Assembly (NCBI GenBank): GCA_934101185.1
Contig: CAKOQD010000003.1
Coordinates: forward strand, 855-64,854
Length of the DNA: 64,000 nucleotides
Direction: 5' to 3'
From: an uncultured Bacilli bacterium
GTDB taxonomy: Bacteria; Bacillota_I; Bacilli_A; RF39; UBA660
The position numbers and the translations under genes are program-made. Of this stretch, positions 3,349-40,088 are shown piece by piece. The notes below the pieces were generated by a model. It had not been told where the DNA came from, made no database searches, and saw only the letters and a program-made list of their open reading frames with translations. Positions within the stretch are counted from its first letter, which is position 1. Each line of letters opens with the position of its first letter.

Positions 3349-3379
3349 AAAAACTCAAGATTTTGTTTCTTGAGTTTTT
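3349..3379. terminator. Bidirectional rho-independent terminator between the convergent DUF378 gene and frr
   Basis: Perfect inverted repeat AAAAACTCAAGA (3349-3360) / TCTTGAGTTTTT (3368-3379) with a 7-nt loop. It is flanked by an A-run and a T-run, so it can terminate in both directions. Confidence 0.8.
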
Positions 3380-3923
3380 ATATTTCCATTAATTCTTTTT
3401 CTTTTTCTTTAGTTAGTTCTTCTATTTTCTTGTTATAGTCATTTACTACTTCTTGAATAATATCTATTATGTTTTTTTCTTTGTCTTCTGGAAGTTCGTC
3501 GTTTTTAACCATTTCTATTACATCTCTACGAATGTTTCTTATAGCTATTCTTCCTTCCTCAGCGTATTCTTTTACTACTTTAACTAATTCTTTTCTTCTT
3601 TCTTCAGTTAGTTGTGGAATAGTTATAAATACTGTTTCTCCATTATTGTTCGGAGTAACACCAAGGTTTGCTTCAAATATTGCTTTTTCTATTGCTCCAA
3701 GTAAGTTTTTGTCAAATGGTTTAACACTTAATTGTCTTGCTTCTGGAACGAATATTGTAGCAACTTGTTTTACTGGTGTTGGTGTTCCATAGTATGATAC
3801 CATTACATCGTCTAACATGCTTGGATTAGCGCGTCCTGCTCTTACAGTAGTAAATCTTTCTTCAAGATTTTTAATTGCTTTGTTCATTTTTTCAATTGCA
3901 ATTTGTTTATAGTCGTTATTCAT
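3378..3923 (-). CDS. frr: Ribosome recycling factor
   Basis: 181 aa. ...[28 protein letters not shown]...[14 protein letters not shown]...[11 protein letters not shown]...RNIRRD is canonical RRF. Confidence 0.95.
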   Translation of the reverse strand: [181 protein letters not shown]

Positions 3924-4643: not shown

Positions 4644-5519
4644 TTATCCGTTTATTTGATTTTTTACTTCCTCTGCAAAGTTTTCAACTTTCTTTTCCAT
4701 ACCTTCGCCTACTTCATATCTTACAAGTTTTAGAATTGTTCCTCCATTTTGAGAAACATATTTTTCAACTGTTTCTTTGTTTTCAGCTTTGATAAATATT
4801 TGATCTGTTAAACATACTTCTTCATAGAATTTTTTTACTTTTCCAACCATGATTTGTTCAATTCTATCTTCTGGTTTTCCTTCGTTTAGCAATTGTTCTC
4901 TCATGATTGTTTTTTCTTTTTCTAGTACTTCAGTTGGTACTTCTTGTTCATTTAAGTATAATGGTCTCATTGCAGCAGCATGCATTGCTACTTCTTTTGC
5001 AACTTCTTCATTTGCTCCTTCAAGTAGAGTTAATGCAACGATTCTACCACCCATATGTGTATATGAGCCAAATACTTGTGAGTCTGTTTTTTCTAGTTTT
5101 TCAAATCTTCTGAAACTAATTTTTTCTCCGATTGTTGAAGTGATAGCTATTATTTTGTCACTAATCTTTTCACCATTTACTTCAAGATTTAGTGCTTCTT
5201 CCATAGTTGTAACATCGCTTTCTAATAAATCTTTAGATAGTTCGTTTACAAAGCTTTGGAATTTTTCGTTTTTGGCAACAAAGTCTGTTTCTGAGTTTAC
5301 TTCGATTACAATAGCTTTATTTCCTTCGATTAAAACGTTAGCTAATCCTTCTGCTGCTATTCTTTCTGCTTTTTTAGCAGCTTTTGATATACCTTTTTCT
5401 CTTAACCATGTGATTGCTTCTTCCATGTCTCCATTTTTTTCTTGAAGTGCTTTTTTGCAATCCATCATTCCTGCCCCTGTTTTTTCTCTTAATTCTTTTA
5501 CATCTTGAGCGCTAAACAT
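4644..5519 (-). CDS. tsf: Elongation factor Ts
   Basis: 291 aa. N-terminal UBA-like VKELREKTGAGMMDCKKAL...AITWLREKG and dimerisation-domain motifs. Positioned after rpsB as usual. Confidence 0.95.
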   Translation of the reverse strand: MFSAQDVKELREKTGAGMMDCKKALQEKNGDMEEAITWLREKGISKAAKKAERIAAEGLANVLIEGNKAIVIEVNSETDFVAKNEKFQSFVNELSKDLLESDVTTMEEALNLEVNGEKISDKIIAITSTIGEKISFRRFEKLEKTDSQVFGSYTHMGGRIVALTLLEGANEEVAKEVAMHAAAMRPLYLNEQEVPTEVLEKEKTIMREQLLNEGKPEDRIEQIMVGKVKKFYEEVCLTDQIFIKAENKETVEKYVSQNGGTILKLVRYEVGEGMEKKVENFAEEVKNQING

Positions 5520-5532
5520 AGTATACCTCCTA

Positions 5533-5571
5533 ATTATTTTAATGCTTCCAATAAGTCAGCTTTTTTCATTG
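5533..5571 (-). repeat. 39-nt near-identical DNA block shared by the 3' ends of rpsB and rplT (copy 1)
   Basis: ATTATTTTAATGCTTCCAATAAGTCAGCTTTTTTCATTG versus 6558-6596 ATTATTTTAATGCTTCTAATAATTCAGCTTTTTTCATTG, with 2 mismatches by hand alignment. Weaker similarity continues for about 50 nt more. Confidence 0.85.
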
Positions 5572-6472
5572 TACTATAACCTTTTACTTCTTTTTCTTTA
5601 GCTAATGCTTTTAATTCTGCTAAAGTTAAATCTTCAAGGTTTGTTTCTTCTGCTACTTTTTGTTCTTCTTTTACTTCTACTTCTTGTTTTTCAACTTTTT
5701 CAGTTTTTTCTTCTTTTTTGTTTTCTTTTTTAGATTCTTCTTTTTTAGGTTTGTTAGCTTTATCTTCAGGTGAAACACAGTTTAGCATTTCTCCACCGTT
5801 AACTTCGTTTATAGCGTTTGCTAAAGCACCAATTACTAATTTTACAGCTCTTACTGCATCATCGTTTGCTGGAATTACGTAATCTACCATATCTGGATCA
5901 CAGTTAGTGTCTACTATACCAAACACTGGGATTTTTAATTTTCTAGCTTCTTTTATAGCTGTTTCTTCAACACGTGGATCTACGATAATCATAGCACTAG
6001 GTAATTTTTTCATTTCTCTAATTCCACGTAAGTTTTTATTTAGTTTTTCGTATTCTTTTTTAATTTGTGCAACTTCTTTTTTAGGTAATAGTTCTAATGT
6101 ACCATCTTTTTCCATTGCTTCAATTTCATCTAATCTTCTTACTCTGTTTTTGATAGTTCTGAAGTTAGTTAATGTTCCTCCTAACCATCTTTCGTTTATA
6201 AAGTAATTGTTTGTTCTGATAGCATTTTCTTCCATTGCTTCTTGTGCTTGTTTTTTAGTTCCTACGAATAAGAAAGTTCCTCCGTTTTCTGCTATCTTTT
6301 TAATTTCTTCGTATGCTTCTTCGATGCATTTTGCTGTTTTTTGTAAATCGATAATATAAATATCATCTCTTGATGTATAAATATATTCTCTCATTTTTGG
6401 ATTCCATCTTCTTTTTTGATGTCCAAAATGTACTCCTGCTTCTAATAAATAATTCATTGACACTACTGTCAT
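5534..6472 (-). CDS. rpsB: 30S ribosomal protein S2 with about 75-aa C-terminal extension (K/E linker plus HeH/Rho-N-like module)
   Basis: 312 aa. The N-terminus [27 protein letters not shown] is canonical S2. The canonical body ends near residue 235. It is followed by [32 protein letters not shown] and then [31 protein letters not shown]. Confidence 0.95.
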
Positions 6473-6557
6473 AATATTCCTCCTTCGTTTTATCTTCTAC
6501 TAAGTTCAAAATAATATCACCATTTGGCACTAGATATTAAAATCCATTAGTATGTTT

Positions 6558-6596
6558 ATTATTTTAATGCTTCTAATAATTCAGCTTTTTTCATTG
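6558..6596 (-). repeat. 39-nt near-identical DNA block shared by the 3' ends of rpsB and rplT (copy 2)
   Basis: See copy 1 (5533-5571). Both copies include the stop codon and encode ...SxMKKA(D/E)LLEALK*. Confidence 0.85.
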
Positions 6597-7077
6597 AAGT
6601 GTATCCTTCAATTCCTTTTTCTTTTGCAAGTTCTTTTAATTCTGCTACTGTCATTTTAGAAATGTCATTTGTTTTTTCTTCTTTTGTTTCTTTTTTAGTT
6701 TCTTTAACAACTGTTTTATTTTCTACTTTACCACTTTTAGCAATTTTTACTAAGTTAGCAAATGCTTCTTTATCATTTATTGCTAATTCTGATAACATTT
6801 TTCTATTGATTTCTACTCCTGCTTTGTTTAATCCATCAATAAATCTTGAATAACTAATATCGTTATTTCTACATTCTGCATTGATTCTTGTAATCCATAA
6901 TTTTCTGAAGTTTCTTTTTGTTTGTTTACGATCACGATATGCATATCTTTCTGAATGCATTACTTGTTCATGAGCTGTTTTATATAATCTATGTTTACTT
7001 CCGAAATAACCTTCGGCTTTTTTTAGAACTTTTTTACGTCTTGCACGTGTTGCAACACTATTTTTAACTCTTGTCAT
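6559..7077 (-). CDS. rplT: 50S ribosomal protein L20 with about 55-aa C-terminal extension (K/E linker plus HeH/Rho-N-like module)
   Basis: 172 aa versus about 118 for typical L20. [35 protein letters not shown]...[20 protein letters not shown] is canonical. The tail is [21 protein letters not shown] followed by [31 protein letters not shown]. Confidence 0.95.
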
Positions 7078-7090
7078 TTTTTACTCCTCC

Positions 7091-7282
7091 TTATCTTACT
7101 ACATTTTTAAATCTTTTTAAGTCTGACTTACTTAATTCAGATTTAGCTCCTGCTTTTCTTGATTGAGCTGGGCTTTTCTTTCCTGTTTGGTGGTTATTAC
7201 CAGCGTTTAACTTTGTAATTGAACCACTTTGTCTAATATTTAATACTTTTTTTGTTCCTTTATGAGTTTTAATTTTTCCCAT
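7091..7282 (-). CDS. rpmI: 50S ribosomal protein L35
   Basis: 63-aa basic protein starting MGKIKTHKGTKK, positioned between infC and rplT as in the conserved operon. Confidence 0.9.
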   Translation of the reverse strand: MGKIKTHKGTKKVLNIRQSGSITKLNAGNNHQTGKKSPAQSRKAGAKSELSKSDLKRFKNVVR

Positions 7283-7293
7283 GGTAATCCTCC

Positions 7294-7824
7294 TTATTTT
7301 TCTTTTATTGGTGCAAGTATCATAGTCATGTTTCTTCCATCTAATTTTGCTTTTTGTTCAATTGTTGCTATGGAATTAACTTCGTTTGCAAACCTTGTCA
7401 TTACATCTATACCTCTATCGGTATGAAGCATTTGTCTTCCTTTGAATCTGATGCTTAGTTTTACTTTATGACCTTTTTCTAAATATTTAGAAGCATTTCT
7501 TAGTTTTGTATTGAAATCTCCAATATCGATATCTGGTGATAAGCGATATTCTTTTAATTCTACAATATTTGCTTGTTGCTTTTTCTTTGCTTCTTTTTGT
7601 TTTTTTGATTTTTCATATTTGAACTTATTATAGTCCATTATTTTACATACTGCAGGATTAGCATTTGGACTTATAAGTACTAAGTCTAAACCAGCATAGT
7701 TTGCAATTGTTAAAGCATCTTTTATTGCTTTGACTCCTAATTGTTCCCCATTTGGACCAATTACTAAAACATGACTTTCTTTGATTTGCTCATTTGTTAA
7801 CAAATCATTACTTTTTGTTGCTAT
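7294..7824 (-). CDS. infC: Translation initiation factor IF-3, probable non-AUG (ATA) start
   Basis: NEQIKESHVLVIGPNGEQLGV...ALTIANYAGLDLV...CKIMDYNKFKYE... is canonical IF3. The track ORF starts at ATG 7839, but that ATG sits inside the SD (atGGAGGTGttttgtATAgca). GGAGGTG at 7837-7831 is 6 nt from ATA 7824, matching the known IF3 autoregulatory non-canonical start. Confidence 0.9.
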   Translation of the reverse strand: MATKSNDLLTNEQIKESHVLVIGPNGEQLGVKAIKDALTIANYAGLDLVLISPNANPAVCKIMDYNKFKYEKSKKQKEAKKKQQANIVELKEYRLSPDIDIGDFNTKLRNASKYLEKGHKVKLSIRFKGRQMLHTDRGIDVMTRFANEVNSIATIEQKAKLDGRNMTMILAPIKEK

Positions 7825-7842
7825 ACAAAACACCTCCATAAA

Positions 7843-7969
7843 TTATAAAAAGAGTACGAAATGTACTCTTATCCAACCTAAAAAACACATAATAATTGCG
7901 TAGGCATTGACCTATGATTTTTCATCATCAGGTGGATATAAGACATCTCTTTCCTTTTTAACACTTAAG
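7843..7969 (-). promoter_or_regulatory. infC-rpmI-rplT leader with terminator/attenuator (L20-leader type)
   Basis: About 125-nt untranslated leader between a consensus promoter and infC. It ends in hairpin AAGAGTAC-(5 nt)-GTACTCTT (7870-7850) followed by TTTATAATT, just before the infC SD. In Bacillus, L20 controls this operon by attenuation at such a leader. Confidence 0.6.
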
Positions 7970-7998
7970 ATTATACACAAATTATATGCTTTTGTCAA
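7970..7998 (-). promoter_or_regulatory. Consensus sigma-A promoter of the infC operon
   Basis: Minus strand TTGACA (7998-7993), an exact 17-nt spacer, then TATAAT (7975-7970). Confidence 0.75.
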
Positions 7999-16281: not shown

Positions 16282-16303
16282 AAAAAAGAAGCGGTTGCTT
16301 CTT
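16282..16303 (-). terminator. Rho-independent terminator after valS
   Basis: Minus-strand AAGAAGC-AACC-GCTTCTT followed by TTTTAAT. The hairpin overlaps the valS stop codon. Confidence 0.7.
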
Positions 16304-18836
16304 ATAATTGTTTTTCTAAACTTAATAGTTTTTCTTGTTCTTCTTTTAGTTTTTGTCTATCTAGTTCTACAATGTTTTGTGGTGCTTTTTTTACATAATT
16401 TTCGTTTGATAGTAACTTTGTTCTTTTTTCTATTGATTGTTTTATTTTTTCTATTTCTGAAATTAACAATTCTTTGTTAATTTCCTTTCCTTTTTGATAG
16501 AAAGTTATTTCAATGTTTGCACTTTTATAGTTGTATTTTTTTGTATCTATTGGTTGTTCTTTTGTTATTTGATCGTCTTTTATTTTTAGTGCAAATTTAT
16601 ATAGTTCTTTATAGTTACTATTTATTTCGATTTTAGCATCTTTTGTAATTTCGTTTACTACTTTTAGGTTTCTTATATTTGTTATATCTTCGATTAGTTT
16701 GTCTATTAATTTTTCTTCGGTTTCATATATTTGATCTTTATTGTATGTAGGGTATTTACTTATTACAATGCTTTCTTGATCTTTTACTGGTAGCATTTGA
16801 TAGATTTCTTCGGTTACATATGGCATAAATGGATGTAACATTTTGATTATGTTTGTTAGAACTTCGAGTAAGACTGTTTTTGTTGTGTTTTTTTCTAAGT
16901 TGTTTTTAGATAGTTCTATATAGTTGTCACAGAAGTCTTCCCATATGTATTTATATAAAGTGTTACCTACGTTATTAAACTCATATTTATCCATATTTTC
17001 TGTTATTTCTTTTATTGTTTTATTAGTTTTTGTCAATATCCATTTATCTATTTCTGTTAAGTTTTCTAATGTATAGTCTTCTTTTTTGAAGTTTTCAATG
17101 TTCATTAGAACGAATCTTGATGCATTCCATAGTTTGTTTATGAAGTTCCATGTTGATGCTACTTTTTCTTCATCGTATCTTAAATCCATTCCTGGTGATG
17201 AGTTTGTTGTTAGGAAGTATCTTAAGGAATCTGCTCCATATTTTTCTATAACGTCCATTGGATCTACACCGTTTCCTAATGATTTTGACATTTTTCTTCC
17301 TTGTTTGTCTCTTATTAGACCGTGAATTAGACAGTCTTTGAATGGTCTTTTACCTGTGAATTCTAGTCCTTGGAATGTCATTCTATTTACCCAGAATGGA
17401 ATGATGTCATATCCTGTTACTAAAACGTTGTTTGGATAGTATCTATTTAGATCTTTTGTGTCTTCTGGCCATCCTAGTGTTGAAAAAGGCCATAGAGCGC
17501 TTGAAAACCATGTATCTAGTACGTCTTCATCTTGAGTCCAACCTGATTCTTGTGGTGGATTTATTCCAACATATATTTCATCGTCTTTGTACCATGCTGG
17601 TATTTTATGACCCCACCATAGTTGTCTTGATATGCACCAATCGTAAGTTATTTCCATCCAGTGATTCATTATTTTTTCGTATCTTTCTGGTACGAAGTTT
17701 ACTTTTGTTTGTTTATTTTGTTGGTTTTCTAATACTCTATCTGCGAGTGGTCTCATTTTTACAAACCATTGCTTTGATAGGTAAGGTTCAACCATTACGT
17801 CTGTTCTTTCTGAGTATCCTACATTATGAGTTATTTCTTCGACTAAGATTAAAAGATTTTGTTCTTTTAAGTCTTTTGCTAATTGCTTTCTGCATTCGAA
17901 TCTATCTAATCCTTCATATTGTAGGGCATTTTTATTCATTGTTCCATTTGGATTTATGACTACGATTCTTTCTAGATTATGACGTTCTCCAACTGCGAAG
18001 TCGTTAGGGTCATGAGCTGGAGTTATTTTTACTACTCCTGTTCCGAATTCTGGATCAGCATGTTGGTCCGCTACTACGGGGATTTTTTTATTTACAATTG
18101 GTAATATTACATTTTTACCAATGTATTTTTTATATCTTTCATCTTTTGGGTTTACTGCTACTGCAGTATCTCCGAATAGTGTTTCTGGTCTTGTTGTTGC
18201 TATTTCTAGATAGTTATCTTCGTCTTCGATGTAGTATTTTATATGATAGAATGCTCCTTTTGTTTCTTTGTAGATTACTTCTTCATTTGATAGTGCTGTT
18301 AATGCTTCAGGATCCCAGTTTATTATTCTTTCTCCTCGATAGATTAATCCTTTGTTATATAAATCTACGAATACTTTTTTAACGGCATTTGATAGTCCTT
18401 CATCAAGGGTGAATCTTTCTTTAGAATAATCTAGGGATAGTCCTAGTTTTGCCCATTGCGCATGAATGTTTTCTGCGTATTCTTTTTTCCATTCCCATGC
18501 AATTTTTAGCCATTCTTCCCTATCCATTTCTCTTGGATTTATTCCTTGTTCTTTTAGTTTTTTATCTACTTTGGCTTGAGTTGCTATTCCAGCATGATCC
18601 ATTCCTGGTAGCCATAAAGCGTCATATCCTTGCATTCTTTTGTATCTTATTATAATGTCTTGTATTGTTGTATCCCAAGCATGTCCAAGGTGTAATTTTC
18701 CTGTTACGTTTGGTGGAGGTATTACTATACAAAATGGTTCTTTAGTTAAGTCTCCACTTTTAAAGTAGTCATTTTTTAACCATGTTTCATATTTTGATTC
18801 TTCTACTTGTTTGTGATTGTATTTTTTTTCTAACAT
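16302..18836 (-). CDS. valS: Valine--tRNA ligase
   Basis: About 844 aa. [14 protein letters not shown] (HIGH), KMSKSLGN, and a C-terminal coiled coil. The track start (GTG 18845) lies inside the SD AGGAAGTG, so ATG 18836 is preferred. Confidence 0.97.
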
Positions 18837-18849
18837 TTTAAGCACTTCC

Positions 18850-19082
18850 TTTTTTAATTAAAAAACATCTCATCCAAAGGACGAAATGTTCGTGGTACCA
18901 CCTTATTTTGTAATATAATATTACCTTATTCTTATTTAACGCATAAGTACGAATTATTCTACTAATTTCAAATAATTACTCAGAAGCTACCTTCGATTAC
19001 TTTGTATAGTAGTTTTCAGCTTACACTACCTCTCTTTAATACTTAGTAATTTACTCCTCTTCGTCATTGATTTATGAAATAT
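18850..19082 (-). promoter_or_regulatory. T-box riboswitch leader of valS
   Basis: Minus strand carries an AGAGA box (about 19031-19035) and the T-box sequence AAUAAGGUGGUACCACG (GGTGGTACCACG = 18902-18891). Then comes terminator AACAUUUCGU-(7 nt)-AUGAGAUGUU followed by U6 (18890-18858). Candidate Val specifier is GUA at 18990-18988. Confidence 0.85.
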
Positions 19083-39810: not shown

Positions 39811-39841
39811 AAAAAAAATCAGAAAATAGAGACTATTTTCT
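39811..39841 (-). terminator. Rho-independent terminator after rpmE
   Basis: Palindrome AGAAAATAG-(3 nt)-CTATTTTCT (39821-39841) followed on the minus strand by GATTTTTTTT. It overlaps the rpmE stop. Confidence 0.8.
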
Positions 39842-40033
39842 GTTGTATTTTTTATTAAACTTTTCAACATTACCTGTTAAAGTTGCTGTTCCTTGTTTTC
39901 CTGTATAGAATGGATGACATTTAGAACATATTTCAACATGGATTTCGTCTTCTTTTTTTGTTGAGTTTGCAGTGAAAGTTTCACCACATGCACATATAAA
40001 TTTAGTTGGTTTTGTTTCAATTACTTTTTTCAT
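39833..40033 (-). CDS. rpmE: 50S ribosomal protein L31 (zinc-binding type A)
   Basis: 66 aa. CxC...[10 protein letters not shown] signature. Confidence 0.93.
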
Positions 40034-40088
40034 TTTGCATCTCCTTCCGCCATGACATTTAAGTCATAGTAATAATTAATTCTTGTAT

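Follow-up and report, generated by a model that had tools for sequence, protein, structure and literature searches.

A predicted Rho_N-type domain at the C-termini of ribosomal proteins uS2 and bL20 in uncultured low-GC Bacilli

It is customary to regard the ribosomes of bacteria as nearly uniform. Why, then, would two unrelated ribosomal proteins, one from each subunit, end in the same small domain? The question is raised by a locus in a 64-kb stretch of DNA (64,000 nt, hereafter the window; GC content 28%) from an uncultured member of the Bacilli, in which the adjacent genes rpsB and rplT each continue beyond a ribosomal core into a charged linker and a 32-residue module. A first-pass annotation, made from the sequence and its open reading frames, had described this common ending, likened it to the N-terminal motif of Rho and proposed recent gene conversion or strong constraint as the source of the similarity at the DNA level. 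Here, we ask what the module is, whether it is maintained in relatives, how its two copies have been kept alike, and what it might bind.

Two adjacent genes with one C-terminal module

The identity of the two proteins rests on full-profile matches that cover complete canonical bodies, as had been claimed (Table 1), and on the canonical operon context. Their best matches in the PDB are S2 chains (1e-98) and L20 chains (1e-44). The gene order in the window is infC-rpmI-rplT-rpsB-tsf-(lipoprotein)-frr, and the synteny from infC to tsf recurs in independent assemblies. This agrees with the original suggestion that the two genes are neighbors because infC-rpmI-rplT abuts rpsB-tsf. Since rplT lies directly upstream of rpsB, the two module-coding segments form direct repeats about 1 kb apart. 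The minus strand of the rplT-rpsB spacer contains no terminator-like hairpin and only a weak promoter-like match, and upstream of infC the Rfam L20 leader gives only a sub-threshold match.

Table 1. Features of the rplT-rpsB locus, in positions of the window
Feature	Position	Strand	Evidence
infC	7294-7839	-	ORF; IF3_N/IF3_C Pfam on syntenic genes of relatives; no tail
rpmI	7091-7282	-	ORF; Ribosomal_L35p Pfam on syntenic genes of relatives; no tail
rplT, ribosomal protein bL20 with C-terminal extension, 172 aa	6559-7077	-	ORF; Pfam Ribosomal_L20 153.1 bits and Rho_N 41.2 bits
bL20 core, aa 1-116	6730-7077	-	Pfam Ribosomal_L20 residues 3-109; AF2 helices to residue 115
bL20 linker, aa 117-140, K/E/T-rich	6658-6729	-	AF2 pLDDT <50 at 120-136
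bL20 C-terminal Rho_N/HeH module, aa 141-172	6562-6657	-	Pfam Rho_N residues 141-171
rplT-rpsB spacer, 86 nt	6473-6558	-	Sequence
rpsB, ribosomal protein uS2 with C-terminal extension, 312 aa	5534-6472	-	ORF; Pfam Ribosomal_S2 326.2 bits and Rho_N 36.0 bits
uS2 core, aa 1-230	5783-6472	-	Pfam Ribosomal_S2 residues 9-223; solved S2 chains align to about 1-230 only
uS2 linker, aa 231-280, K/E-rich, low complexity	5633-5782	-	Composition; low cross-species identity
uS2 C-terminal Rho_N/HeH module, aa 281-312	5537-5632	-	Pfam Rho_N residues 279-311
tsf (EF-Ts), downstream partner of rpsB	4644-5519	-	ORF; EF_TS Pfam on syntenic genes

When an HMM built from the two tails was run against all six-frame ORFs of the window, it recovered the S2 and L20 copies at E=2e-22 and 5e-21 and nothing else below E=1.8, so that the sharing goes far beyond chance. 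No further copy of the module was found elsewhere in the 64-kb window, in which L35, L31, and S12 are without a tail, nor outside S2 and L20 in 677 kb of flanks in relatives, and no protein has the modules in tandem.

The HeH/Rho-N-like character assigned to the module by the first-pass annotation is upheld by profile searches, for which the Pfam gathering thresholds are 24.9 bits for Rho_N (PF07498), 23.9 for SAP (PF02037) and 28.9 for HeH/LEM (PF12949). Rho_N is the best-scoring family throughout, and both full-length proteins pass its threshold, as do the isolated tails of S2 (40.8 bits) and L20 (42.4 bits). The SAP threshold is passed by the isolated L20 tail only (28.8 bits; full-length L20 22.2, S2 tail 15.0), and that of HeH/LEM by neither protein (L20 21.9 and 26.0, S2 14.4); a precomputed PF12949 match is present in some relatives. 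Pfam finds only the ribosomal core and Rho_N in the two proteins, with neither the Rho OB domain (PF07497) nor a RecA-type ATPase domain, and we reject on this ground the idea that they are themselves Rho proteins. The only sequence matches to the module in the PDB are Rho N-termini and the Ku70 SAP domain.

The module is predicted to fold as a Rho_N/SAP/HeH-type helix-extended loop-helix domain. In the AF2 prediction for the stand-alone 36-aa L20 module (pLDDT 90.8), a helix at 8-18 and a second at 28-35 are joined by a loop, and in the model of whole L20 the module helices fall at 144-154 and 164-171. The stand-alone model resembles the N-terminal domain of E. coli Rho (1a8v; TM 0.80, rmsd 1.0 Å) and the SAP domain of Hcc-1 (2do1; TM 0.82), with Foldseek E-values that are non-significant because the domain is so short. 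The linkers are K/E-rich, as had been claimed, and that of L20 is predicted to be disordered (Table 1). The module is absent from every solved uS2, bL20, and bL21 chain in the PDB, the bL20 chains all ending at about residue 115-129.

Maintenance of the fusions and gene conversion in relatives

The S2 and L20 tails are real gene fusions, kept by selection across a clade of low-GC Bacilli from the gut that are known only as uncultured organisms. A survey of orthologues finds the extension on all 240 relatives listed, PF07498 being present in the same architecture on 120/120 of the best S2 relatives listed and on 120/120 of the best L20 relatives listed. At the level of loci, the S2 module is present in 85/85 (the window, 80 GTDB species loci, and four metagenome contigs). 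The L20 module is found in 39 of the 80 species loci, all with rplT adjoining rpsB, a count outside which stand about 29 species with rplT elsewhere. A missed stop or an assembly artefact, which the first-pass annotation had raised against its own proposal, is rejected, as the tails are in frame and recur in hundreds of independent assemblies (ENA, JGI, NCBI, Logan) and in 80 GTDB species. Three over-long database entries (P0002, P0007, and P0121) proved to be internal-duplication misassemblies with no bearing on the tails. The seeming absence of the S2 gene at one locus (L087) is due to a wrong gene call, and the gene there is intact.

Conservation is distributed unevenly along the two proteins. 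The uS2 linker ranges from 41 to 104 aa (median 66; 81 species), with 24% K, 22% E, and a net charge of about 0, and the bL20 linker from 20 to 59 aa (median 45; 39 species). Mean pairwise identity across the 81 species is 0.79 for the S2 core, 0.35 for its linker, and 0.61 for its module; the corresponding values for L20 are 0.86, 0.44, and 0.67. Residues L7, A11, K23, and K24 are invariant across 120 modules.

In the relatives, the two modules resemble each other more within a genome than between genomes. Their identity is 0.72 within versus 0.60 between genomes, a difference that 0/10,000 permutations equaled (p<1e-4), and the pooled fraction of identical codons is 0.80 versus 0.69. An excess of synonymous-codon identity is seen in 16/39 species at P<0.005, eight of which survive Bonferroni correction, and in one species (locus L025) the two tails agree in 32/32 residues and in 30/32 codons. 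The tracts of similarity begin 119-206 nt before the stop codon and run up to it, or nearly so; past the stop codons, the two 3′ ends show no further DNA similarity. Moreover, in a tree of 639 aa from S2, L20, and EF-Ts, 0/200 bootstraps unite the S2 genes with an L20-type (“B”) tail into a monophyletic group, and these genes fall into at least two separate groups. L20-type tails have thus replaced S2 tails at least twice in relatives, and in many species of the clade gene conversion running in both directions has homogenized the module repeats of about 100-200 bp. Such homogenization implies that the modules are functionally interchangeable.

The genome of the window itself shows no synonymous excess (P=0.25-0.26). 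Its S2 and L20 modules share 69% amino-acid identity, and the last 96 nt of the two genes are identical at 78/96 positions. The first-pass annotation had counted only two differences in the last 39 nt; there are three (36/39 identical), and two in the last 38 nt. Since the rest of the module DNA is only about 74% identical, and since conversion is demonstrable in relatives, one could read this near-identity at the 3′ end as a recent conversion tract in this very genome. We think this very improbable. In a codon test, in which the number of identical codons expected at identical residues is taken from the window's own codon usage, the whole module has 16/22 identical codons against 14.3 expected (P=0.26), and even the last 12 codons, a stretch chosen post hoc, have 9/10 against 6.6 (P=0.058). 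The longest exact run common to both tails measures 16 nt and ranks with the shorter ones across the 39 species, and a close relative (L004) has the same S2-type versus L20-type differences as the window. The residual similarity is explained by purifying selection and codon bias acting on copies that have drifted apart. The earlier suggestion of gene conversion therefore holds for related species, but as a recent event in the window it is not supported.

Recruitment to other proteins and possible ligands

While none of the other ribosomal proteins in the window carries the module, it is not peculiar to S2 and L20 when other bacteria are considered. A DNA-pattern scan of metagenomes found bL21 with the module to be widespread in Flavobacteriaceae, on contigs of 30-50% GC, and found bL27 and bS1 with it once each; the architectures Ribosomal_L21p+Rho_N, Ribosomal_L27+Rho_N, and S1+Rho_N exist. 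The same module subtype has thus been recruited independently to the C-termini of bL21, bL27, and bS1. Between the two phyla, the ribosomal protein modules have a mean identity of 0.62 and a maximum of 0.85, similar to S2 versus L20 within one clade, a figure inflated by the choice of the L21 set through a DNA pattern in which about 10 of the 32 residues are already fixed; true Rho N-termini are more distant, with identities of 0.24-0.52. A module profile searched against 1.84 billion representatives gave 4462 matches, headed by multi-repeat Rho_N proteins and by S2 and L20 gene fragments. Pfam scanning of 73 of these matches showed kinase, helicase, and sigma-70 partners and no further ribosomal protein family, with SAP also matched in 42/73. 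As the first-pass annotation had supposed, no function has been described for the S2 and L20 tails: our literature search found no paper on fusions of Rho_N to ribosomal proteins or on the function of such tails.

Lineages that lack the module offer a hint at its ligand. Nine species have, in place of the L20 module, a K/T/A tail that is strongly basic (net charge +7 to +15), and one locus with such a tail (L029) is nested among module-bearing sisters. In F. johnsoniae, too, bL21 ends in a K/A tail and lacks the module. These replacements, together with a net charge of about +2.3 for the module itself, suggest that the ligand of the module is interchangeable, and probably a polyanion.

Our best overall explanation, to which we give an even chance of being right as a whole, joins the maintained fusions and the conversion in relatives to an inferred nucleic-acid-binding handle. 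The modules would be flexibly tethered, low-specificity handles on the solvent surface of both subunits, concentrating ribosomes, or unbound ribosomal proteins, locally on their ligand, and would not be expected to dock at one fixed place on the ribosome. The likeliest ligand would be single-stranded RNA (mRNA or nascent rRNA), with A/T-rich DNA as second choice. A precedent exists in Arabidopsis RHON1, in which the isolated 40-aa C-terminal Rho-N motif binds ssRNA, including fragments of 16S and 23S, in gel shifts, and bound no dsRNA (PMC3458557). Two observations count against this reading. The positive charge of the module is slight, and the L20 copy of the window has a net charge of 0. The carriers also fall into two physical neighborhoods, uS2/bS1 and bL20/bL21, a hint that the place on the ribosome could be important, which agrees less with a generic handle.

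Some contacts made by HeH and SAP domains are with proteins, and the main RNA site of Rho lies outside its helix bundle, which leaves room for a protein partner. The module could then be a protein-protein adaptor, with one partner common to both subunits, such as RNA polymerase or NusA (Rho touches the transcription complex through its N-terminal domain), an RNase, or a factor for hibernation or assembly. The clustering of carriers in two neighborhoods would suit such an adaptor, as would the contact of S2 with S1 on the ribosome that is reflected in an S2-S1 chimera (PDB 4toi). The modules of two phyla are also closer to each other than to Rho N-termini, suggesting a conserved partner. However, the identity between phyla is inflated by the L21 pattern, no candidate partner has been identified, and the exchange of the module for a plain basic tail in sister lineages is easier to reconcile with polyanion binding. 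Overall, we consider an adaptor unlikely. We are more doubtful still of a SAP-like binder of dsDNA, by which ribosomes or unbound uS2 and bL20 would be tethered to the nucleoid, A/T-rich in these bacteria with small genomes. The SAP score of the isolated L20 tail, the SAP matches among the module relatives, the structural matches to the SAP domains of Hcc-1 and FAN1, the sequence match to that of Ku70, and the low GC content of the genome all lean this way. Yet Rho_N scores best throughout, the C-terminal motif of RHON1, the one tested biochemically, bound ssRNA and not dsRNA (PMC3458557), and the bL21 module occurs in Flavobacteriaceae contigs of 30-50% GC.

Hardly any credence is due to the idea that the tails lack a specific ligand, whether the charged linker serves as an entropic or solubility “bristle” that the small domain merely caps or the whole is tolerated baggage. 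Disordered extensions of ribosomal proteins are indeed common across bacteria, most of them without an assigned role (PMC9534751), and the linkers vary freely in length and sequence. But the module is far better conserved than the linker, its Lys-Lys pair and hydrophobic positions are invariant, and it has been kept in at least 80 species, re-homogenized by conversion, and recruited independently to other ribosomal proteins. A more specific version of ligand binding, which we think very unlikely as a complete account, is that a Rho-N-like subfamily was recruited repeatedly, in at least two phyla, at uS2/bS1 near the mRNA exit and at bL20/bL21 on the solvent side of the 50S subunit, where it would mimic the N-terminal bundle of Rho and bind Rho's ligand (nascent ssRNA or a component of the transcription complex), with conversion keeping the copies matched. 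If so, nascent transcripts would be tied physically to ribosomes, or ribosomes would be competitors of Rho.

Comparison with known systems

The nucleic-acid-binding handle that we favor opens the hypothesis of tethered RNA- or DNA-binding handles on ribosomes, possibly tied to transcription-translation coupling or mRNA capture, in carriers that include abundant gut and marine bacteria. There are also practical consequences: these ribosomal proteins will be included wherever Rho is counted by means of PF07498, and the tails are best excluded from rpsB, rplT, and rplU trees.

One close likeness is to the N-terminal helix bundle of Rho (PF07498; 1a8v, 8hsj, 7oqh, 3l0o), with which the tails share the helix-extended loop-helix and a G-x-x-x-M-[KR]-K signature. 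In Rho, the motif is N-terminal and followed by an OB-fold RNA-binding domain and an ATPase, whereas in S2 and L20 it is a lone C-terminal domain. In this respect RHON1 comes nearer, an unrelated protein whose C-terminus is formed by a lone Rho-N motif that follows a charged region (PMC3458557); it is, however, a plant chloroplast RNase E cofactor and not a ribosomal protein, and has no homology to S2 or L20 outside the motif. The SAP/HeH/LEM-like domains (Ku70 SAP 1jjr, Hcc-1 SAP 2do1, FAN1 SAP) have a two-helix fold and share with the tails a conserved Leu and a Gly-x-Lys pattern, but the matches are weak and these are eukaryotic DNA- or chromatin-binding modules. Among ribosomal proteins, the bL21, bL27, and bS1 fusions are alike in passing from a core through a low-complexity linker to the same module subtype at the very end of the chain, and rplU/rpmA resembles rplT/rpsB in that the tail can occur on either of two adjacent genes. 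They differ in their host proteins, in their phylum and in their linkers, which are K/A/P-rich and not K/E-rich, and their architecture is auto-annotated in databases, with no paper found on it.

Long, charged C-terminal extensions of ribosomal proteins are also found in genome-reduced relatives of the Bacillota. On the in-cell ribosome of Mycoplasma pneumoniae, such extensions are mostly disordered and their function “largely elusive” (Xue et al. 2022, PMC9534751). They have not been reported to end in a folded domain common to several proteins, and the S2 chain of M. pneumoniae (7ooc) aligns to residues 3-269 of our query only, and thus without the module. What appears distinctive here is an extension that ends in a conserved, predicted folded domain of a nucleic-acid-binding type, common to unrelated proteins of both subunits and kept alike by conversion in relatives. 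For the conversion itself there is precedent in tufA/tufB and other duplicated translation genes, in which interlocus gene conversion recurs and the copies within a genome are more alike than orthologues (PMC6053082). In tufA/tufB, whole paralogous genes are converted, whereas in rpsB/rplT it is only a 3′ domain segment of about 100-200 bp in non-homologous, essential genes, an unusual case of concerted evolution.

The Rho_N module at the end of S2 and L20

Both uS2 (rpsB) and bL20 (rplT) in the window run on beyond a complete ribosomal core into a linker rich in Lys and Glu and a 32-residue C-terminal module, and the two tail sequences quoted in the first-pass annotation match the encoded proteins exactly. 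With Pfam (gathering threshold 24.9 bits), S2 carries Ribosomal_S2 at residues 9–223 (326 bits) followed by Rho_N at 279–311 (36.0 bits), while L20 carries Ribosomal_L20 at 3–109 (153 bits) followed by Rho_N at 141–171 (41.2 bits). The family proposed from the sequence, Rho_N/SAP/HeH (helix-extended loop-helix), was recovered as Rho_N on both tails; SAP and HeH scored below Rho_N, SAP passing its threshold with the isolated L20 tail alone and HeH staying under its own in every case. When an HMM built from both tails was run against every six-frame ORF in the 64-kb window, it matched S2 and L20 alone, and the tail is absent from L35, L31 and S12, the remaining ribosomal protein genes identified there.

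Structure prediction gives the module a HeH/Rho_N fold and leaves its tether disordered. AlphaFold2 models the 36-residue L20 tail (pLDDT 90.8) as a helix (8–18), a nine-residue extended loop and a second helix (28–35); in full-length L20, the canonical helices continue to residue 115, the linker at 120–136 has pLDDT below 50, and the module helices occupy 144–154 and 164–171. In Foldseek, the predicted module superposes on the N-terminal domain of E. coli Rho (1a8v; TM 0.80, rmsd 1.0 Å, 33 residues), as it does on two SAP domains, those of Hcc-1 and FAN1; with a domain of this small size the E-values do not reach significance. Its PDB sequence relatives are Rho N-termini (8hsj, 7oqh, 3l0o) and the Ku70 SAP domain, nothing else, and in a PDB sequence search no solved uS2 or bL20 chain reaches into the tail.

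The module is under purifying selection. Mean pairwise identity is 0.79 in the S2 core, 0.35 in its linker (41–104 residues across species, median 66) and 0.61 in its module, the corresponding values for L20 being 0.86, 0.44 (20–59 residues, median 45) and 0.67; Lys makes up about one quarter of the linkers and Glu about one fifth. Across 120 modules, L7, A11, K23 and K24 are invariant and T3, K/R8, K12, M22 and L31 are kept in 88–100%. The mean net charge of the module is +2.3, and tandem modules were found in no protein examined.

The window has a G+C content of 28.4%, and nearly all of its credible genes (~60) lie on the minus strand of positions 1–64000, among them rpsL-fusA-tuf (the str operon), several tRNA synthetases, uvrA and uvrB-like genes; co-orientation this extreme characterizes low-GC Bacillota and Mollicutes-like genomes. 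The infC leader probably acts as a divergent attenuator through which the infC-rpmI-rplT operon would respond to L20.

Genes and regulatory features around rplT and rpsB and elsewhere in the window
Feature	Position	Strand	Remarks
infC	7294-7839	-	first gene of the minus-strand series
rpmI	7091-7282	-	after infC
rplT	6559-7077	-	172 aa; after rpmI
rpsB	5534-6472	-	312 aa; after rplT
tsf	4644-5519	-	after rpsB
lipoprotein-like ORF		-	between tsf and frr
frr	3378-3923	-	last of the series
sigma-70 promoter	7998-7970	-	perfect consensus TTGACA-17-TATAAT, upstream of infC
infC 5' leader	within 7840-7998	-	
terminator-like hairpin	7870-7850	-	in the infC leader, 3' of the promoter
Rfam L20_leader match	7840-7957		full-length, sub-threshold: 22.1 bits vs gathering score 58.7; E=0.18
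T-box leader	18874-19076	-	128 bits; upstream of the next ORF
valyl-tRNA-synthetase-like ORF	16302-18845		847 aa
L31-Firmicutes leader	40041-40069	-	33.4 bits, just at threshold; upstream of rpmE
rpmE	39833-40033		

Spread of the fusions and exchange between the rpsB and rplT tails

An artefact of sequencing or assembly had been considered for these tails, but relatives and independent metagenome contigs agree that the extension is a lineage feature. Among the matches listed, PF00318+PF07498 occurs in 120/120 S2 relatives (down to 70% identity) and PF00453+PF07498 in 120/120 L20 relatives, and the order infC-rpmI-rplT(Rho_N)-rpsB(Rho_N)-tsf is kept on gut-metagenome contigs (Hadza and others). 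A GTDB scan with one genome per species returned 80 loci (numbered here, like the metagenome loci, with an L), all from uncultured gut bacteria, under record names as varied as Bacilli, Tenericutes, “Acholeplasma sp. CAG:878”, Ca. Faecenecus, Ca. Fimihabitans and Ca. Coprosoma, the last three placed by NCBI in Bacillota or Mycoplasmatota incertae sedis. S2 has the C-terminal module at all 85 loci considered (the window, the 80 species loci and 4 metagenome contigs).

In 48 of these 80 species rplT immediately precedes rpsB, and L20 ends in the module at 38 of these 48 (length filter applied), as well as at L007, where it stands behind a masked N stretch. At nine (L014, L016, L028, L029, L033, L035, L057, L062 and L075), a strongly basic K/T/A-rich tail of 31–106 residues and net charge +7 to +15 takes its place (example tail end KKTTTKKTTKKEDK), and no module remnant was found downstream in these nine species. 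Since L029 is nested among module-bearing sisters, its swap from module to basic tail is recent. The simplest reading of the S2/L20 pairing lies in gene position: S2 is a carrier at 85/85 loci and L20 at loci with rplT immediately before rpsB, the arrangement in which L20 was examined, so that the module may have been copied onto the neighboring gene and retained there. In the sub-clade of L083 and ~29 other species loci without rplT upstream of rpsB, the S2 linker holds an extra conserved basic segment, ALETVKRKEDRKRFDNKKDKKPFNKEKKPF, often called as a separate small protein by gene callers (e.g. database entries P0286, P0291 and P0299). The over-long S2/L20 entries P0002 (524 aa), P0007 (452 aa) and P0121 (293 aa) were rejected as biological variants, their internal core duplications being metagenome misassemblies.

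The first-pass annotation reported two differences in the last 39 nt of the two genes and suspected recent gene conversion or strong constraint. Aligned from the stop codon, 36/39 positions match, with three differences, and the last 96 nt are identical at 78/96. Using codon frequencies from 42 long window ORFs and scoring positions with identical residues, we find 16/22 identical codons across the module against 14.3 expected (P=0.26), and 9/10 against 6.6 (P=0.058) in the last 12 codons, a stretch picked after the fact; the longest exact run common to both copies is 16 nt. The near-identity in the window is what peptide conservation together with a codon bias toward AAA, GAA and TTA produces, and it gives no evidence of recent exchange. 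Gene conversion fails the codon test for the window genome, but it holds for related species in tests on 39 genomes with the module on both genes, the window included.

In this set, S2 and L20 modules are 0.72 identical within genomes and 0.60 between, and 0/10,000 permutations attain the observed within-genome value. The modules fall into type A (G-Y-S/T-S/T-M-K-K) and type B (V/T-T/A-G-L/M-K-K, its loop shorter by one residue). In one clade, module-bearing L20 is always type B, S2 varies between the two types from species to species, and the type-B S2 tails share lineage-specific details with the L20 tail of the same genome. On a neighbor-joining tree of a short concatenate (639 aa; S2 core, L20 core and EF-Ts), the type-B-S2 genomes are monophyletic in 0/200 bootstraps and fall into two or more groups, each placed within type-A genomes, so the L20 tail has replaced the S2 tail on no fewer than two occasions. 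Transfer the other way is seen at L025, where an S2-type L20 tail has 32/32 residues and 30/32 codons identical. Identical codons exceed expectation from a species' own codon usage in 16/39 species at P<0.005, 8 surviving Bonferroni correction; the pooled fraction is 0.80 within genomes against 0.69 between, a control that corrects only partly for an expectation built on locus-wide rather than ribosomal-protein-specific codon usage. Tracts of DNA similarity begin 119–206 nt 5' of the stop and extend to the stop codon or fall slightly short of it, with exact S2/L20 runs of up to 50 nt. These relatives have thus undergone interlocus gene conversion, with direct repeats separated by ~1 kb as the partners; if the repeats recombined by crossover, rpsB would be deleted, and the product would not be expected to survive.

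The module on other ribosomal proteins

Besides these genuine and conserved fusions, further ribosomal proteins have recruited the module, and repeatedly so. Searching public metagenomes with the conserved module core back-translated to a DNA pattern returned 127 module-bearing ORFs in 120 loci: 40 S2, 40 L20 and 47 others. These 47 include 32 bL21 (K/A/P-rich linker and module), one bL27, one bS1 and one true Rho, the rest being contig-end S2/L20 fragments or unrelated proteins that are small, histone-like or acidic; Pfam confirmed Ribosomal_L21p+Rho_N, Ribosomal_L27+Rho_N and S1+Rho_N. For one module-bearing bL21, PF00829+PF07498 occurs in 120/120 relatives among the matches listed, the named sources being Flavobacteriaceae. 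The tail is on L21 in 32/33 rplU-containing loci, with rpmA, where present in these 32, plain; at L110 (contig Ga0181553_10000256), L21 (103 aa) has no tail, and linker and module are found on the adjoining L27. The tail thus appears to have moved to the neighboring gene, and its presence on either adjacent gene echoes the rplT/rpsB situation.

Flavobacteriaceae L21 modules are on average 62% (maximum 85%) identical to those of gut-Bacilli S2/L20, a figure inflated by a search pattern that fixes ~10 of 32 residues; this pattern-inflated closeness equals that of S2 to L20 and exceeds that to real Rho N-termini (24–52%). F. johnsoniae bL21 in a solved ribosome (7jil_R, 147 aa) has a module-free K/A-rich C-terminal tail of ~45 residues, which the structure paper does not discuss (PMC7797042).

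PDB matches of S2 include an S2-S1 chimera (4toi). As bS1 docks on uS2 and bL21 adjoins bL20 on the ribosome, the carriers fall in two surface neighborhoods, bL27 being the single exception. The sole bS1 example, at a metagenome contig end (L172), has at least three S1 domains, an N-terminus lost to the contig end, and a final K/A/E linker and module. The same module subtype ends a histone-H1-like K/A/P-repeat protein (L157, 70% GC) and a family of ~115-aa small basic proteins (L109, L167), and is also present close to the C-terminal end in two proteins of ~455 aa that contain poly-Asp/Glu stretches (L160, L163).

Possible function and relation to known systems

[quoted passage not shown] Swapping between different rRNA surroundings on a tether of unconstrained length makes docking at a fixed neighboring site unlikely, and the module more probably binds a generic ligand reachable from the ribosome surface. 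In sister lineages plain basic tails stand in for the module; this alternation, with the family resemblance, suggests that the ligand is nucleic acid. The sole biochemically tested lone C-terminal Rho-N motif, that of Arabidopsis RHON1, has single-stranded RNA as its ligand, with rRNA fragments among the RNAs bound (PMC3458557). On these grounds, we give about an even chance to the module being a tethered, low-specificity RNA-binding handle. One shared protein partner seems unlikely beside the replacement by polycationic tails. We consider binding to A/T-rich DNA or the nucleoid quite unlikely, and tails with no specific ligand very unlikely for a module under purifying selection.

The first-pass annotation knew of no described function for such S2 or L20 tails, and our literature searches found no paper describing or explaining Rho_N tails on ribosomal proteins. 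Two-domain architectures of this kind are already auto-annotated in databases, and a survey of Rho found PF07498 in 2379 genomes against 2248 for the Rho RNA-binding domain, its authors noting that some PF07498 matches may be false positives. The Rho_N/SAP/HeH family is already known, as are lineage-specific ribosomal protein extensions as a general phenomenon; in M. pneumoniae, 11/52 ribosomal proteins are extended, with functions “largely elusive” (PMC9534751). Among translation genes, entire paralogues such as tufA and tufB are known to evolve in concert (PMC6053082). The finding is not categorically new; it is unreported, recurs across phyla and bears an unusual evolutionary signature.
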